From UHGV virus genome UHGV-0219734: DNA of 20,304 nucleotides. One strand, written 5' to 3'. The notes under the pieces were generated by a model. It saw only the letters and a list, made by a program, of their open reading frames with translations. It did not search any database and was not told the DNA's origin. The stretch is from a virus. Every line of letters starts with the position of its first letter. Position 1 is the first letter of the stretch. This document shows, piece by piece, positions 5,311 through 18,376 of the stretch. The position numbers and the translations under genes are program-made.

Positions 5311-5639
5311 CAGTTCACCACCTGTTCAAACTCTGCGCTGAACTCAACACGCAACATACTGACCCGCGACGACCATTTTGCGCAGGTCACCTTTATCTGC
5401 CGGTAGCCATAAGGCGGCGTCCACAGAAAGGCCTTCCAGCCCCCGTGCTCAGCCAGAAACGATTCCAGTGCCGTGGCCTCCTCGCGGGGAACAGAAAGCG
5501 TCACGCTGTACGTTTTCAGGTCAGCGTTCAGCCCGGCAGGCGCACGCTGAGAATAGCCATCACCAAAGCGCACCTTTATTACGGAAGGGGCCGAAGCCAC
5601 ATCCATACCGGGTTTCACTTTCCAGCGGAAGGTTTTCAT
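5310..5639 (-). CDS. M: Minor tail protein M
   Basis: 109-aa ORF (MKTFRWKVKPGMDVAS...EFSAEFEQVVN), matching lambda gpM length and, by recollection, nearly all of its sequence. ATG overlaps the H stop (ATGA). Confidence 0.92.
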   Translation of the reverse strand: MKTFRWKVKPGMDVASAPSVIKVRFGDGYSQRAPAGLNADLKTYSVTLSVPREEATALESFLAEHGGWKAFLWTPPYGYRQIKVTCAKWSSRVSMLRVEFSAEFEQVVN

Positions 5640-8600
5640 CGTCCACCTCCGGAGAACAGACCACCATCACGGGACTGCTGTTGCATAAAGTCCGCTGCTG
5701 CTTTTTTCCCGAGGTCATAAACCACCTTCAGGGCAGCCGGACCTATCTGCCCGTTCGTGCCATCGTTATTGATCTCGATGTTGTACTGCGGGGCAAACAT
5801 CGCCATACCTGAACCACCAATATCCGCCACAACCCCCAGCTTACCGTCAGCACCACGACGCAGAGGCAGAATGGCTTCAGGCCCAGCTTCCCCCATCACA
5901 CCTGCACCTTTTGCAAAAGCAAAAAACGTCGGACGGTTAACCACCGTGCCACTGTAGCGACTCAAATCAGCAGACTGATAAACACCACCATCAGCATTGG
6001 GCGTCACACTGGCAGTTGCTGCACTCCCCCAGCCAAACGCCGAACCAATCCCCTTAACTGCCTGCATCATGGACATCTGGGCCATGATTTTTGCCAGATC
6101 AGAAAGGAGCGAGGCGGTAAAAGATTTGAAGTTCAGTTTTCCGGTAGTACAGAACGTTGCCAGTGCATTACCTGCACTGTTAAATGCCGCTGTAAGCATC
6201 TGCTCAGCAGTGCCTGCCGCATTATCCGCATCTGCCGTGAAATTCTGAAACGCCCGCATAGCACCGTTTTTCCAGTTACCCTGAGCAATTTCAAGCTGTT
6301 GCCAGTAACGGCGATTCTCATTCAGTTGTCGGTTCAGGCTCTCCGTCAGCGCCTGCTCGGCCTTTCTGTAGTCATCCGTGTTATATGTCCCTTTCTGCTC
6401 ACTATCCCGCCTCAACTGCTCCAGCTGTTGCTGGTATTTCTGGCGAAGACTCAGTTGTACCTGATATCGCTGCCGCTGCTGATCACCCATACCCACCGTG
6501 GCGATATCCAGGTCATGTTGCTGGCGCTGAGCGCGCTCTTCTTCAGCCAGTTGACTGGTCAGCTGAATTGTTTTTTTCTTCAGATCGTTGAGTGCCGTCT
6601 GTTTCTGAAGCTCCTGCTGTTTTACATCCAGCAGCGTCAGTGCCTGAATCAGTTCATCTTTACGGGCCAGCAAACTCTTTTCATCTGCCGTCAGTTTTTT
6701 CCCGTCCAGATCGCTGATGCGCTGCTGCAGAGCCAGAAGCTGTTTATGCGCTTCTGTCATCCTGTCAGTGGCAATGCCTGCTGACTGTCTTGCAGCAGCA
6801 ATCTGCCCTTCCACCTGTGCCTGTTGCTGACTGTACTGCAGCAATAACCGGGTGGCCTCATCATTACGGGTTTCGCGTGTTTTTTTCTTACCGGATGCCA
6901 GGGCTTTCTCGTAACGTTCATTTTCACGTTGTATCGCCGCATCCCTGACAGCCTGATCGGCGTACTGCATGGCATTAATACGCGCAATTTCACGCTGATG
7001 CCGTGCTGCTTCCGTTTCATTCATCCGGTTCAGTGCAGCATTTTCAGCATTACGGCGTTTCTGTTGCTCCTGATAATTCCGCTCTGCCTGCTCTTTTGCA
7101 TCCTGCAAATCCTTCTGGCGTTTTTTCTCCTGAAGATCGTTAAGACGCTGCTGATCGTATTCAACCTGAGAAGATGATGCCGTCCAGGGGAGTCTTTTCG
7201 CCCGCGACACTTTCTCCTGTAAAGCGGCAATCTGTTCATCCAGCGAGTCTTCACGACCAATATTCATGGCCGCATCCCAGAACTGCTTCCACCAGTCAGA
7301 CAAAGTTTGCAGCGTGCTACCCAGCGCATTGAGGTTATTATCAATATCCGCAGTACGACGATCGGTTTCCTCTGCCAGTGCAGACATGGCTATCCGTGCA
7401 GCATCACTGGACCGCCCCTGCTCCCCAAGGACGCGTATCTGCTCAAGCTGAGTGGCAGTAAGAAAATGCAGCTCATTGTCCAGAGCCTTCGCGGCATTTA
7501 CAGGATCATCCTTCAGCCGCTTAAACTGACTTATGGTATCGCTGACCGACTGGCCAACCGATCGCTCCATCTGTGCGGCAGCTCTCGCCACCATACCGAT
7601 ATCGTTTCCACGAAATGCACCACTCCCCACCACCTGAGCCAGCGCACCGGCTGCAGCATGTTGCGTGATACCATTCCCGGAAATAGCACGACTGAGCGTC
7701 CACAGTTGCCCGGCAGTGACTCCGGCATAATGCCCCGTCAGCGACAACTGGCGGTTAAATTCTTCCCCCTCCTTCTGACCGTCATACCAGGCTTTACCCA
7801 GACCATAGACGGCCGCGGCAATACCGCCAATAACCCCGCCCAGCATCATGCCTTTCGGTGACATCAGTGTGTCTATCCATCCGGCACGGTTAGCCAGCGT
7901 TATCCCGGATCCCCTCAGCGCACCTAAATTGCCGCGGGCCAGTTCACCTATCAGAACGCCTATCTCCTGGCGGGCCGCTGCACTTTTCAGACCCAACGAA
8001 TGCGTGGCTTTTCCTGCCTGCTCCATTTTGCGGATATACACTTCTGCAGCACTGCTTACCCCCAGTTGGGCAGCCTTAGCACGAAGCAACTCAGAAGAAG
8101 AAAGATTCTGGCGGGTTGCCTGCTCTTTAAGCTGACGGATAAACGCCACTTTCTGTCGGGTAGACTCTTCCTCAGCCTGTGTAAGAACACGGGTTTTCGC
8201 AGTAACCTCAGAAATCAGCGCCAGATAATCCTGCTGACCAATCCCGCCACTGTTTCTGGCCTGTCGGATCTGCTGCTGAATACGCTGTAATTCCTGCAGC
8301 CCCGCACTGGCCTGGTTCACACTGTCAATCTGACGATAAAACGCAGCAGCCGCTTTATCCTGAGCCTCCGCCAGAGCCATGGCCTGCGCCTGTTCCTCGC
8401 GCATTTTCTGGCTCAGCGCCTCCATGCGCTGGCGGGTTTTCTCCACCTCGCGGGCCATGCGTTCATGAGCCTGTGCGTTCTTCTCCACCGTCTGCGCATG
8501 GACGGATGCGGCTGTTGCAGCCGAAGAAGCCGCCTGCGTTGTCTGCCGGGCGGCCTGAGTCTGACGCTCCATAAAACGCTGCATACGGGCAGAAGACCGT

Positions 8601-8710
8601 TCTGCATCGCTGGCTGCACCATTCAGAAGGTTTTTGATACGGGGGATTTCATTTTTAAACTCTGCCGCATCAATCCCCAAATCAATGACCAGGTTGGCTA
8701 TCTGGTCCAT
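5636..8710 (-). CDS. H: Tail tape measure protein (gpH-like), ~1024 aa from ATG 8708-8710
   Basis: Long ORF with extended coiled-coil-like middle (Q/E/R/A/L-rich). N-terminus MDQIANLVIDLGIDAAEF and C-terminus ...NNDGTNGQIGPAALKVVYDLGKK...RDGGLFSGGGR resemble lambda gpH. Strong SD (GGAGGTG) upstream of the ATG at 8710; the track start at 8740 is a TTG N-terminal extension. Confidence 0.9.
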   Translation of the reverse strand: MDQIANLVIDLGIDAAEFKNEIPRIKNLLNGAASDAERSSARMQRFMERQTQAARQTTQAASSAATAASVHAQTVEKNAQAHERMAREVEKTRQRMEALSQKMREEQAQAMALAEAQDKAAAAFYRQIDSVNQASAGLQELQRIQQQIRQARNSGGIGQQDYLALISEVTAKTRVLTQAEEESTRQKVAFIRQLKEQATRQNLSSSELLRAKAAQLGVSSAAEVYIRKMEQAGKATHSLGLKSAAARQEIGVLIGELARGNLGALRGSGITLANRAGWIDTLMSPKGMMLGGVIGGIAAAVYGLGKAWYDGQKEGEEFNRQLSLTGHYAGVTAGQLWTLSRAISGNGITQHAAAGALAQVVGSGAFRGNDIGMVARAAAQMERSVGQSVSDTISQFKRLKDDPVNAAKALDNELHFLTATQLEQIRVLGEQGRSSDAARIAMSALAEETDRRTADIDNNLNALGSTLQTLSDWWKQFWDAAMNIGREDSLDEQIAALQEKVSRAKRLPWTASSSQVEYDQQRLNDLQEKKRQKDLQDAKEQAERNYQEQQKRRNAENAALNRMNETEAARHQREIARINAMQYADQAVRDAAIQRENERYEKALASGKKKTRETRNDEATRLLLQYSQQQAQVEGQIAAARQSAGIATDRMTEAHKQLLALQQRISDLDGKKLTADEKSLLARKDELIQALTLLDVKQQELQKQTALNDLKKKTIQLTSQLAEEERAQRQQHDLDIATVGMGDQQRQRYQVQLSLRQKYQQQLEQLRRDSEQKGTYNTDDYRKAEQALTESLNRQLNENRRYWQQLEIAQGNWKNGAMRAFQNFTADADNAAGTAEQMLTAAFNSAGNALATFCTTGKLNFKSFTASLLSDLAKIMAQMSMMQAVKGIGSAFGWGSAATASVTPNADGGVYQSADLSRYSGTVVNRPTFFAFAKGAGVMGEAGPEAILPLRRGADGKLGVVADIGGSGMAMFAPQYNIEINNDGTNGQIGPAALKVVYDLGKKAAADFMQQQSRDGGLFSGGGR

Positions 8711-9011
8711 AACGCACACCTCCGGAAATACCTTCCCCAAGATGCATCAGTTCTTCGTCCGTTCGCTCCGGTATCCCGTTCTCTTCCGGTAAAAGGCTGA
8801 AATCAGCCACCGCAGCATCACTGCTGCCGGACACCATTCTCACGATCAATGCCTTCAGCGAGGCAAACTGCGCATCCATCCACACATCACTGAAGCTCTG
8901 CATCCGGAAATAATCGCCCCACTCACCAAGCTCAGTGGCCGACATTTCCGACAGCATCCGCCGCCAGTCTGCCCGCCGGAACTCCCGGGCAAGCCGCATG
9001 ACAAACTGCAT
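8682..9011 (-). CDS. T: T-frame segment of tail assembly chaperone, expected to be expressed as a G-T fusion by -1 frameshift
   Basis: ORF in the -1 frame relative to G, open from just upstream of the G stop. Translation ...LAREFRRADWRRMLSEMSATELGEW...GGVRYGPD resembles lambda gpT. Position between G and H. Confidence 0.8.
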   Translation of the reverse strand: MQFVMRLAREFRRADWRRMLSEMSATELGEWGDYFRMQSFSDVWMDAQFASLKALIVRMVSGSSDAAVADFSLLPEENGIPERTDEELMHLGEGISGGVRYGPDSQPGH

Positions 9012-9019
9012 TTCCCGCG

Positions 9020-9409
9020 TCAGGACTTTTCCGGCGTCAGCGCCTCATGCTCATCATCCCTGGCATTATCAATGGTCCCCATACCGCTCAGCGACAGAAC
9101 CATCTCCGCCCCCGCCCCCAGGGCATCATACGACCATGTTGTAATAACGGATGCGCAAAGCGTCTCTACATCCTTAGACTGATCCGCATTCCACAGTGAG
9201 CGGGAAACCAGCCAGGCATTGATATCCATCCCCATCCGCAGAAAAGCAATCTGTCGTTCAGCCTCCGGCAGTTCTCCCTCTTCGGCATCAAACTTTGCCG
9301 TTCGCTGCTGAACAAACGCCAGATATTCAATTCTCTGCAGCCCGGACAGCTCACTGAGCACCACGGACTGCTTTTCATAATTAAACGTGCCCTGTTTCAG
9401 AAACATCAT
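9020..9409 (-). CDS. G: Tail assembly chaperone G
   Basis: Likely start at tandem ATGs (9404-9409) after GGTGGAG. Translation MMFLKQGTFNYEKQSVVLSELSGLQRIEYLAF... resembles lambda gpG (MFLK...). The track's N-terminal extension (TTG at 9448) runs through the V terminator hairpin and is rejected. Confidence 0.85.
   Translation of the reverse strand: MMFLKQGTFNYEKQSVVLSELSGLQRIEYLAFVQQRTAKFDAEEGELPEAERQIAFLRMGMDINAWLVSRSLWNADQSKDVETLCASVITTWSYDALGAGAEMVLSLSGMGTIDNARDDEHEALTPEKS
9026..9032 (-). other. Candidate -1 programmed frameshift heptamer for G-T fusion (minus-strand G-GAA-AAG)
   Basis: The only slippery-looking sequence in the 25-nt G/T frame overlap (minus strand CCG GAA AAG UCC UGA). 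One nucleotide different from the lambda G-GGA-AAG site as I recall it. Just upstream of the G stop at 9020-9022. Confidence 0.5.
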
Positions 9410-9422
9410 GTTCTCCACCTGC

Positions 9423-9446
9423 AAAAAAGCCCCGGATAACCGGGGC
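9423..9446 (-). terminator. Intrinsic terminator-like hairpin after major tail gene V
   Basis: Plus strand aaaaaa-gccccgg-ataa-ccggggc: 7-bp GC-rich stem, 4-nt loop. On the minus-strand transcript the hairpin is followed by UUUUUU. Lies in the V-G intergenic region. Confidence 0.6.
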
Positions 9447-9466: not shown

Positions 9467-10210
9467 TTAACCTGCGGCGCTGACAGCCACCGTAGCCACT
9501 GCCACAAAATCGCCGTCAGAAGTCATGCCCACAATGCTGACACTGCCCTGCTTCACGCCTTTCACCGTGGCCACAAGCCCGTTCAGGGTCACCGTGGCAG
9601 TCTGTGGATCTGTCGAATGCACACTGATCGCTTTGTCACTGGCTCCGTCAGGTTTTACTGTAAAGGTCAGCGTGGTGGTTGCTCCCACTTTTACACTGGC
9701 AGATGCCGGTGCCACCGTCAGCCCGGTAACGCCCACAGTTTCAGTGCCTTCCTCTGCCAGATACGGACGCCCCACACCGCTGATTTTCACTGTGCGGGTC
9801 ATCACGTCTTTTGAGGCAATGGTTTTACCCAGTGAGCTCAGCCAGCCACGGAAAACATCAACAGTGCCGTTGGGATATTTGATACGAAACGCGCAGACTT
9901 CACCGGAGTCGAACAACTGAACCAGTTTTTTCTGCCCGCTGTCACCCGGACGCCAGGCCAGCGTCGCCGAAGTATCACCGACTGATTTCTGCCCCTGGGT
10001 TGTCGTTTTCCAGTCTGCATCTTCATCATCGAGATAAGTGTCATCTTCTGCATCAGCGGTCATTTCGCCAGGTTGCAGATCCTTCACCATCGCAAGACGC
10101 AGCCAGTCAGTGTCCGACAAAGGGTTCGCAAATGCGTCGCCGTTGCCGGTATACATCCAGAACGTCGTTCCCGCACCTTTCGTTTTTGCCAGTGGATTTG
10201 GTGTGGTCAT
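9467..10210 (-). CDS. V: Major tail protein V with C-terminal Ig-like (Big_2-type) domain
   Basis: ATG at 10208-10210 preceded by AAGGAGGT. Translation MTTPNPLAKTKGAGTTFWMYTG...YLDDEDADW...FPNGTVDVFRGW resembles lambda gpV. C-terminal ~90 aa is Thr/Val/Ser-rich beta-type sequence typical of the gpV Ig-like domain. The track's upstream extension (10285) overlaps U and is rejected. Confidence 0.9.
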   Translation of the reverse strand: MTTPNPLAKTKGAGTTFWMYTGNGDAFANPLSDTDWLRLAMVKDLQPGEMTADAEDDTYLDDEDADWKTTTQGQKSVGDTSATLAWRPGDSGQKKLVQLFDSGEVCAFRIKYPNGTVDVFRGWLSSLGKTIASKDVMTRTVKISGVGRPYLAEEGTETVGVTGLTVAPASASVKVGATTTLTFTVKPDGASDKAISVHSTDPQTATVTLNGLVATVKGVKQGSVSIVGMTSDGDFVAVATVAVSAAG

Positions 10211-10220
10211 TACCACCTCC

Positions 10221-10634
10221 TTAATTCGTGTACGTGATCTGGTACGTGATTTCCGCCATCGCCCAGGTGGCCATCTCATTATCACGTTGATAGTTAAAAC
10301 CGAGTGGGTTCAGGGTGTCGATGAGTCCGGAAAGTGCCGGTACATCATTCAGGGCCGGGAAAATGGTGCTCTCCATCCACATATCCAGCTCTGAATCCGG
10401 TGCCTGTGCCCGGATGAAGACGGCAATATGCAGAACAGCCTGCCAGTCATCTTCATCCGTCATTTTTCCGGTGTACTGAGCATCACTCAGCCACACCGCC
10501 ACGGCAGGCAGTTCCTGCGCATCAATAAATGCCGGAAGCCCGTCAAAAAACGTGGCGCTGTCTCCACACTGTTCCCGAAGGCGTGCCAGTACGACCTGGC
10601 GGATTTGTGTATGTCGGTTCATCGGGTCAGCCAT
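10221..10634 (-). CDS. U: Tail terminator protein U
   Basis: 137-aa ORF. Motifs ...GDSATFFDGLPAFIDAQELPAVAVWLSDAQYTG...PDSELDMWMEST...ITYQITY resemble lambda gpU (131 aa) as recalled. Position between Z-like and V. Confidence 0.9.
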   Translation of the reverse strand: MADPMNRHTQIRQVVLARLREQCGDSATFFDGLPAFIDAQELPAVAVWLSDAQYTGKMTDEDDWQAVLHIAVFIRAQAPDSELDMWMESTIFPALNDVPALSGLIDTLNPLGFNYQRDNEMATWAMAEITYQITYTN

Positions 10635-18184: not shown

Positions 18185-18376
18185 ACCCGCTCCAGAATGT
18201 TTTAAACATGCATCTTGCGAACAACTTTAGGCAAACGGTGTTAGTGATGAACAAAAAACAATCAAAATCGACACCATAAAAATAAAACTAATGTAATATC
18301 AATGCATTACAGTAGTGGTGATGACGAATGAAATTTCAAAAACTAGCCTTTTCCCGCGACGCTCCCGCCCCGTGGC
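18185..18376 (-). other. cos site: cosN (about 18353-18376) plus cosB (18185-18352)
   Basis: Minus strand reads CCACG-GGGCGGGAGCGT-CGCGGG-AAAAGG..., against lambda ACG-GGGCGGCGACCT-CGCGGG-TTTTCG as recalled. Further in, ATTCGTCATCAC echoes lambda CTTCGTCATAAC. AT-rich stretch with repeated TCATCAC motif before the small terminase start. Predicted 12-nt cohesive end is minus-strand GGGCGGGAGCGT (plus 18359-18370). Confidence 0.6.

Follow-up and report, generated by a model that had tools for sequence, protein, structure and literature searches.

Comparative support for a probable −1 ribosomal frameshift at a G_GAA_AAG heptamer between tail genes G and T of a cdtI/mEp460-type prophage

Introduction

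Can a heptamer that departs from the canonical X_XXY_YYZ rule join tail genes G and T of a lambda-like prophage by −1 ribosomal frameshifting? The question is raised by the window analyzed here, a 20,304-nt stretch of viral DNA (UHGV-0219734), in which G ends inside a second open frame. The natural point of comparison is phage lambda, whose G/GT frameshift at G_GGA_AAG was reportedly described by Levin, Hendrix and Casjens in 1993 and by Xu, Hendrix and Duda in 2004, 2013 and 2014. A first-pass annotation of the window had recognized a lambda-like arrangement with T in the −1 frame, and had singled out G-GAA-AAG as a non-canonical slippery heptamer. From the comparisons reported below, we consider it very probable that the site is a G/GT programmed −1 ribosomal frameshift in the lambda-like tail module of a cdtI/mEp460-type prophage.

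Results

Gene order and frames at the G/T locus. All features described here lie on the minus strand and are given in window coordinates. Gene G (9020..9409, 129 aa) encodes a tail assembly chaperone in the 0 frame and matches PF06894 (Phage_TAC_2, E 3.5e-40). The T segment (8682..9026, 114 aa) lies in the −1 frame and matches PF06223 (Phage_tail_T, E 5e-15). These matches and the translations bear out the arrangement proposed at first pass. Upstream of G is the major tail tube gene V (9467..10285; PF16461, Phage_TTP_12, E 1.5e-66, with a Big_2 domain), whose coordinates are those of the longest open reading frame; its RefSeq homologue measures 744 nt, so the likely start is 10210. Downstream is the tape measure gene H (5636..8710), identified by PF06791, PF09718, PF24622 and an annotated homologue, with its ATG at 8710 and a 29-nt overlap with the end of T. 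The chaperone gene is thus flanked by V and H, and as Z, U, M, L, K and I are also in place, the tail genes follow the lambda order Z-U-V-G-T-H-M-L-K-I. A terminator scan placed a terminator-like hairpin with a T-run in the V/G interval (9419..9446, GCCCCGGTTATCCGGGGC TTTTTT). At the same place a rho-independent terminator is annotated in mEp460 and Ayreon, and the hairpin between V and G is annotated as a stem-loop in N15 and HK225.

G opens with two tandem ATGs, at 9409 and 9406; the second is the RefSeq start and, by alignment, the MFLK start of most homologues. At its 3' end, G overlaps a −1 frame that is open from the nearest upstream stop (9047-9045) to the stop at 8684-8682. The stretch open in both frames (9020..9044) reads, in the G frame, G GCG CTG ACG CCG GAA AAG TCC TGA, and ends with the G stop codon, TGA at 9022-9020. 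The 25 nt given for this stretch by the first-pass annotation are correct if the G stop codon is counted; otherwise the stretch is 22 nt (9044..9023). Within it, G_GAA_AAG (9026..9032) places GAA (Glu) in the P site and AAG (Lys) in the A site, and a −1 slip would bring the two tRNAs onto GGA and AAA. As had been noticed at first pass, this is the sole slippery-looking sequence in the overlap, being the only run that permits A-site re-pairing. Its A-site half (A_AAG) is canonical and its P-site half (G_GAA) is not, so that it fails the X_XXY_YYZ rule, which is satisfied by relatives with G_GGA_AAG, A_AAA_AAG or C_CCA_AAA at the homologous site. GGAAAAG occurs six times in the window against 2.5 expected. 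The motif alone is not rare, and what makes it significant is therefore its frame, position and conservation. Another copy that looks in-frame (18354..18348) falls within a doubtful ORF, with the lysis genes on one side and the small terminase gene on the other, and was dismissed.

The predicted fusion is complement(join(9409..9026, 9026..8682)), with GTC (9026-9024) as the first T codon and TGA (8684-8682) as the stop. It would have 128 + 114 = 242 aa, or 241 aa from the ATG at 9406. The junction predicted by the first-pass annotation, ...EALTPEK/VLTREMQFVMRLAREFRR, agrees with the two translations. Similarity of the T frame to lambda T begins at the codon directly after the heptamer (VFDGELSFALKLARE vs VLTREMQFVMRLARE).

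The T frame lacks a conserved start of its own. The public records inspected for this lineage all give T as a separate CDS and contain no G-T fusion; this is the case in RefSeq E2348/69, mEp460 and cdtI, while Ayreon uses a later ATG. Taken at face value, these records would mean that T is made independently from the ATG present at 9011, with no frameshift and with the overlap with G incidental. We judge this very unlikely. The −1-frame T domain overlaps the 3' end of G without a conserved initiator: the column of ATG 9011 holds L, R, I or V in relatives, and it is preceded by a nearly invariant Glu. No ATG, GTG or TTG occurs in the T frame from the stop at 9047-9045 to that Glu. Moreover, the sole purine-rich run before ATG 9011 (GGGAA) abuts the ATG with essentially no spacer. 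Independent initiation would also leave unexplained the conservation, at synonymous sites, of the heptamer and its first base (described below). Lastly, in lambda gpT is produced only as gpGT, a finding of Levin et al. 1993 that is cited in the review by Atkins et al. 2016 (PMC5009743).

The heptamer is conserved at the nucleotide level. An alignment of the G-T junction across relatives, suggested in the first-pass annotation, finds GGAAAAG invariant in 346 sampled loci, a sample strongly biased to close relatives of the window and amounting to 31 distinct 67-nt contexts, with G-protein identity down to 42%. A T-protein alignment search of viral and metagenome collections gave near-identical loci for all of the best 80 matches; diversity was gained by running tblastn against the phage collection and by using distant G proteins as queries. 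The loci include relatives from Salmonella, Symbiopectobacterium and Superficieibacter (42-60% G-protein identity), and phages isolated on E. coli hosts, among them mEp460, cdtI, Ayreon, Tritos and HannyBb, carry the motif. Of 5426 complete E. coli genomes, 1847 carry the region in near-identical form (at least 95% identity). The natural "fused" G-T proteins P0026 and P0044 carry internal deletions rather than slip-site indels and were rejected as candidates.

The shift site is kept in these diverged relatives at synonymous positions as well. The protein sequence of the linker before the heptamer is highly variable, and the codon preceding GAA is CCG in 24 contexts, GCG in six and GTG in one, encoding Pro, Ala or Val. 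The third base of this codon, which is position 1 of the heptamer, is G in all 346 loci, while one codon further upstream the third base may be G, A, T or C. Such constancy of position 1 under three different amino acids (Pro, Ala and Val) is to be expected only where tRNA-Glu has to pair with GGA, the P-site codon of the −1 frame. This argues that re-pairing of the P-site tRNA from GAA to GGA contributes to the putative shift, which would then not be driven by the A site alone.

A single-tRNA event, in which Lys-tRNA slips on A_AAG and P-site re-pairing by tRNA-Glu is irrelevant, is for this reason an unlikely account of the site. In its favor, no other tetramer in E. coli comes near A_AAG in its proneness to shift, and slipperiness is an inherent property of tRNA-Lys(UUU) (PMC4066793); Ewingella-type relatives, moreover, appear to rely on a single slip by Lys-tRNA, on A_AAA followed by a stop codon. 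Against it stand position 1, always G while neighboring third positions are free, and the behavior of the tetramer by itself: A_AAG without a stimulator stays close to background in vivo (0.147% vs 0.112%; PMC4066793), and we find no stimulator here. Slippage of RNA polymerase rather than of the ribosome, on the four-A run inside the heptamer, would also yield a fusion transcript, but its probability is negligible. Canonical relatives have only three As at the site (GGGAAAG), which makes a common transcriptional mechanism implausible; in bacteria, productive transcriptional slippage needs homopolymer runs much longer than A4, typically of 7 or more.

Distribution of the two heptamers in the family. 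Both G_GGA_AAG and G_GAA_AAG are present in each of the two enterobacterial branches of the GT tree, and are thus interchangeable by one transition. Lambda reads GCG GGA AAG exactly at the place of the heptamer. The P-site codon of the window therefore differs from that of lambda, as stated at first pass, by one G-to-A change at the equivalent position.

Searches for stimulatory elements. A Shine-Dalgarno-like GAGG (9043..9046) lies 10 nt 5' of the heptamer (−14..−11) and was considered as a candidate stimulator on the basis of its sequence. In the E. coli dnaX frameshift the spacing of the upstream Shine-Dalgarno element is likewise 10 nt. By analogy, GAGG at 9046-9043 could pair with the anti-Shine-Dalgarno of the translating ribosome and boost the shift. 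An SD-like sequence is indeed carried upstream of the dnaX site (PMC6924986), and Sharma et al. looked for stimulators of this kind at 6-17 nt 5' of the motif (PMC4066793). Throughout the short-G clade each lineage has GAGG, GGAG or GGAGG 10-14 nt before the heptamer, and this holds for the diverged L092, L093 and Ewingella-type sites as well. However, synonymous resampling that preserves the protein yields an anti-SD match as good or better in 10-66% of the trials for each lineage, and is significant in none (P = 0.1-0.66), so that GAGG can be explained by the amino-acid sequence of an acidic Glu-Ala linker. In addition, N15, HK225, phi80, LLS and mEp043 use GGAAAAG without the motif in range, and the scores of L095 and L096, relatives with a canonical heptamer, are close to that of the window. 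We conclude that an upstream SD-like stimulator is unsupported, and a dnaX-like boost improbable.

Nor does comparison support a downstream hairpin or pseudoknot at 5-9 nt from the heptamer. RNAalifold on nine diverged sequences (−8.15 kcal/mol, covariation +0.27) gave no helix near the site. A downstream structure was rejected, as there is neither a conserved helix nor covariation. The minimum-free-energy fold of the single sequence has z = −1.96, with the heptamer itself paired. An Rfam scan of the whole window returned no matches.

Discussion

The comparative data support the functional −1 shift at G_GAA_AAG that the first-pass annotation had put forward. The novelty which that annotation implied for the heptamer does not hold: GGAAAAG is already known as a G/T slip site. 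GenBank misc_features in the records of N15 (gene 14/15), phi80 (gpG/gpG-T) and LLS (genes 11/12) mark it as the −1 slip site with NNG GAA AAG in the 0 frame, and the phi80 record gives a joined gpG-T CDS. These phages carry the identical heptamer at the homologous site, after an NNG codon. Their place in the family is the other branch, lambda-like and with a long G; they have five more G codons past the heptamer, no upstream GAGG and about 41-43% identity to the window in the T segment. In the literature searched, no paper discusses GGAAAAG in the role of a slip site in phages.

The most likely mechanism is tandem slippage in which tRNA-Glu re-pairs on GGA through a central G·U pair. In this model most ribosomes would read G through to its stop codon and produce the 128-129 aa chaperone, and a minority would go back one base on G_GAA_AAG. 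The peptidyl-tRNA-Glu would move from GAA to GGA, where codon positions 1 and 3 would stay Watson-Crick paired and position 2 would become G·U, and Lys-tRNA would move from AAG to the fully cognate AAA. Translation would then continue in the T frame to give a G-T fusion of about 242 aa with the junction ...TPEK-VLTRE.... If the two parts act as in lambda, the G part would bind H, the tape measure protein, and V, the tail tube protein, would be recruited by the T part. A separate stimulatory element is apparently unneeded, as reported for lambda.

Comparison with lambda delimits what is shared and what differs. In both cases G (PF06894) and T (PF06223) are homologous, lie between V and H in a −1 frame relation, and place the shift at homologous codons with AAG in the A site and no evident RNA stimulator. 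Identity is about 35% for G and about 37% for the T segment. While the lambda P-site codon is GGA (Gly), with cognate re-pairing, that of the window is GAA (Glu) and the central G·U would be needed; lambda G ends five codons past the heptamer, whereas G of the window ends one codon past it. The dnaX site, A_AAA_AAG, resembles that of the window in that tRNA-Lys(UUU) reads AAG in the A site before the −1 shift, and the upstream SD of dnaX is at the spacing of our GAGG. In contrast to dnaX, which combines the upstream SD with a downstream hairpin, the window has no conserved downstream hairpin, its SD-like motif finds no support above chance, and its P-site codon is not self-similar. GGAAAA also fits the "twofour" XXYYYY class of PRFect, drawn from annotated phage frameshifts without XXXYYY, which is a bioinformatic grouping without experimental efficiencies (PMC10885494). 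Its authors propose tRNA-Glu re-pairing from GAA to GGA via G·U, their example having tRNA-Glu as the second tRNA, on GGGGGAA, whereas in the window it occupies the P site before AAG (PMC10885494).

The lambda G/GT frameshift has an efficiency of about 4%, and that of G_GAA_AAG is probably lower. In a reconstituted E. coli system with wild-type EF-G, AUG GAA AAG gave mainly the 0-frame product (PMC6924986). G GAA AAG had been picked there as an unfavorable control for the second-position mismatch of tRNA-Glu on GGA, and it was less slippery in vitro than G_GGA_AAG (PMC6924986). This low slippage fits one of the two alternatives offered by the first-pass annotation, namely a shift of lower efficiency, the other being a shift that depends mainly on A-site slippage on AAG.

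We tentatively propose, at somewhat less than an even chance, that G_GAA_AAG is a true tandem-slippage heptamer working through the central G·U of P-site tRNA-Glu on GGA, with the corollaries that follow. The site would set a G:GT ratio lower than that of lambda. Both tRNA-Glu and tRNA-Lys carry mnm5s2U34, and for this reason the ratio would be doubly sensitive to host thiolation by Tus/MnmA. Furthermore, a sequence used as a "non-slippery" control in studies of ribosome kinetics would be a natural recoding site in about one third of complete E. coli genomes. On this reading GGAAAAG, and not GGGAAAG, could even be the commoner or the ancestral form in enterobacterial lambda-like tails.

For annotation, the consequence is that the inspected records of this lineage, RefSeq included, start T at a non-conserved ATG and treat it as a gene of its own. 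A search for G/T sites that keeps to the X_XXY_YYZ rule is too narrow. In Enterobacteriaceae, Sharma et al. 2014 looked for X_XXY_YYZ-type patterns only (PMC4066793), and their search would therefore miss the large GGAAAAG group. The passage between G_GGA_AAG and G_GAA_AAG by a single transition within one gene family offers a natural comparison, which could measure the share of P-site pairing in −1 frameshifting and the G:GT ratio that tail assembly tolerates.

Organization of the G/T locus

The G and T reading frames of the window overlap on the minus strand. G, the tail assembly chaperone gene (9409..9020), encodes 129 amino acids with the C-terminus ...EALTPEKS* and matches Pfam PF06894 (lambda tail assembly chaperone G; E 3.5e-40). 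In the −1 frame relative to G, a stop codon at 9047-9045 is followed by an open stretch to 8684-8682 that matches PF06223 (minor tail protein T; E 5e-15). The tail tube gene V is located upstream and the tape measure gene H downstream, with Z, U, M, L, K and I around them as in lambda, and J truncated by the left end of the window. The domain matches and these neighbors bear out the lambda-like arrangement, with T in the −1 frame, that was proposed in the first-pass annotation. The stretch open in both frames is 9044..9023; counting the G stop codon, it has the 25 nt of overlap described there. This overlap reads, in the G frame, G GCG CTG ACG CCG GAA AAG TCC TGA. The heptamer G_GAA_AAG (9032..9026) is, as had been claimed, its sole sequence permitting tRNA re-pairing after a −1 slip. 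The proposed fusion junction, ...TPEK/VLTREMQFVMRLAREFRR, agrees with the reading frames; the predicted G-T fusion has 242 amino acids, or 241 if the second ATG is used (9406, the RefSeq choice). Taken simply as a 7-mer, GGAAAAG is not unusual (six copies in the window vs 2.5 expected), so the case for the site is based on frame, position and conservation.

A further GGAAAAG at 18348-18354 (minus strand) is found between the lysis genes and the small terminase gene, in a region that is probably cos. It has the nominal G_GAA_AAG frame, but within a doubtful 92-amino-acid GTG ORF that ends 12 nt later, and we judge it coincidental. Two ATG codons stand in tandem at the start of G (9404-9409, minus strand); the GGAG at 9416-9413 is separated from them by 3 and 6 nt, respectively. 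The second (MFLK) is the start found in most homologues and chosen by RefSeq; the first is annotated in mEp460 and Ayreon. The V-G intergenic region holds a strong terminator-like hairpin (9419-9446, minus strand; seven G-C pairs and T6). It is conserved, with annotation in mEp460, Ayreon, N15 and HK225, and may keep transcription of G, T, H and the genes downstream below that of V.

Comparison with lambda and translation of T

Lambda has GCG GGA AAG TGT where the window has CCG GAA AAG TCC TGA, a single G-to-A change inside the heptamer. Similarity between the two T frames starts at the first codon past the heptamer (VFDGELSFALKLAREM in lambda, VLTREMQFVMRLAREF in the window). The ATG at 9011, given as the T start in public records, falls in a column occupied by L, R, I or V in relatives, and a nearly invariant Glu is found upstream of it. 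No T-frame ATG, GTG or TTG was found between the stop at 9047-9045 and this Glu. T therefore has no conserved translation route apart from G.

Conservation of the heptamer

Among the matches listed, CCGGAAAAGTC is present without exception in the 80 close viral-contig relatives, and G proteins down to 55% identity retain a P-E-K end behind a hypervariable acidic linker. The alignment of G-T junctions suggested earlier as a check recovers GGAAAAG at the homologous site in 346 of 363 loci (31 distinct 67-nt contexts), in a sample from viral, genome, metagenome and phage collections that is skewed to the clade of the window. The sample nevertheless includes Salmonella prophages and one locus each from Symbiopectobacterium and Superficieibacter (the latter at 42% G identity). 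The codon 5' of GAA is CCG in 24 contexts, GCG in six and GTG in one. The encoded amino acid thus varies, yet the third base, position 1 of the heptamer, is G in all contexts; one codon further upstream the third base may be G, A, T or C. Position 1 is a four-fold degenerate site of the G frame and is left untranslated in the T frame, so the absence of variation there points to RNA-level selection. This is the expected outcome if tRNA-Glu has to pair with GGA as the −1 P-site codon.

Shift sites across the gene family

We observed at least five different shift-site solutions within this one gene family. G_GGA_AAG is found in lambda, PhiR29_1, PhiR12_5, some Stx2a phages, and Serratia and Symbiopectobacterium prophages, and G_GAA_AAG in the clade of the window, the Salmonella clade, N15, HK225, phi80, LLS and mEp043. 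Stx2_14040 and Stx1_111698 have A_AAA_AAG (TCA AAA AAG; loci L279 and L285), and Vibrio phages 187P1 and HY01 have C_CCA_AAA (L280 and L284). Ewingella-type loci have G_GCA_AAA followed at once by UAG: their junction (L094 1601-1611; L110-L113) reads CTG GCA AAA TAG, with the T frame onward as ...GK IAARE. This junction is devoid of a tandem-slip heptamer, and a single P-site slip of Lys-tRNA on A_AAA, with the UAG stop waiting in the A site, is likely.

In a neighbor-joining tree of reconstructed GT proteins, GGAAAAG and GGGAAAG are both present in both enterobacterial branches. This distribution implies at least two exchanges between them by a single transition, and in evolution the two act as functional equivalents. 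Two database proteins, P0026 and P0044, have their G and T domains in a single frame. In both, G is joined to the T frame by an internal deletion (e.g., ...WSYDA-GKVLTRE...) rather than by a slip-site indel, and they probably come from defective prophages or from errors in assembly.

Search for stimulators

GAGG is located at 9046-9043, 10 nt upstream of the heptamer, and GAGG, GGAG or GGAGG occurs 10-14 nt upstream in every lineage of the short-G clade, the branch of the window. When synonymous codons were resampled with the protein fixed, 10-66% of trials, depending on the lineage, gave an equal or better anti-SD match. No upstream SD-like motif accompanies the identical heptamer in the N15/phi80 group, and canonical-heptamer relatives in the short-G clade have similar anti-SD scores; we therefore claim no stimulator here. 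On the downstream side, folding of the single sequence gave nothing remarkable (z = −1.96, with the heptamer itself paired), an alignment fold of nine diverged relatives gave no helix near the heptamer and no covariation, and an Rfam scan of the window returned no match. The window resembles lambda in having no evident stimulator; no strong one was reportedly described for lambda by Levin et al. in 1993.

Relatives and prior annotation

A prophage of E. coli GU2018_CL13 is 100% identical to the window over the first 3.4 kb tested. Identity in the G-T region is 99.7% for phage cdtI and 98-99% for mEp460, Tritos, HannyBb and Ayreon, and 1847 of 5426 complete E. coli genomes carry a copy at ≥95% identity. 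The E2348/69 copy of this prophage (NC_011601; L001 from 2291) has its tape measure gene recorded as a frameshifted pseudogene, so the tail module is decaying in some chromosomal copies, despite an intact G/T heptamer.

In GenBank, GGAAAAG is labeled at the corresponding G/T junction in N15 (a misc_feature at 10027..10033, "slippery sequence for -1 translational frameshift"), in phi80 (10194..10200, where gpG-T is given as a joined CDS) and in LLS ("minus-one programmed translational frameshift site GGAAAAG"), and T of HK225 is annotated as the downstream half of an N15-type frameshift product. T is called a separate gene in cdtI, mEp460, Ayreon and RefSeq E. coli records. The GGAAAAG slip site is thus already known, and the only missing piece is its annotation in the lineage of the window. 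A broad survey of such G/T sites, several confirmed experimentally, is said to have been made by Xu, Hendrix and Duda (2004). The PRFect paper includes an XXYYYY ("twofour") motif class taken from annotated phage frameshifts, and proposes re-pairing of tRNA-Glu from GAA to GGA via G·U (PMC10885494).

Proposed mechanism and probable efficiency of slippage

The anticodon of tRNA-Glu is mnm5s2UUC. In the P-site half of the slip this tRNA would shift from GAA to GGA, with Watson-Crick pairs at positions 1 and 3 and G·U at position 2. In E. coli no tetramer is more prone to shift than A_AAG, the A-site half; alone it is near background (0.147% vs 0.112%), reaching 5.6% only with a strong pseudoknot (PMC4066793). 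Peng et al. (2019) chose AUG GAA AAG as an unfavorable sequence in a reconstituted E. coli system, where wild-type EF-G gave mainly the 0-frame product; EF-G domain-4 mutants raised its frameshifting, to an extent different from that of G GGA AAG (PMC6924986). These data, with the invariant G at position 1, make tandem slippage with imperfect P-site re-pairing the best reading. The efficiency of G_GAA_AAG is probably below the ~4% of lambda (PMC3296357). In lambda, G has to outnumber GT greatly, with a 30:1 ratio called crucial (PMC5009743), so a lower rate may be enough. Overall, the evidence supports a standard G/GT frameshift at this locus, with a heptamer variant common in enterobacterial lambda-like tails.
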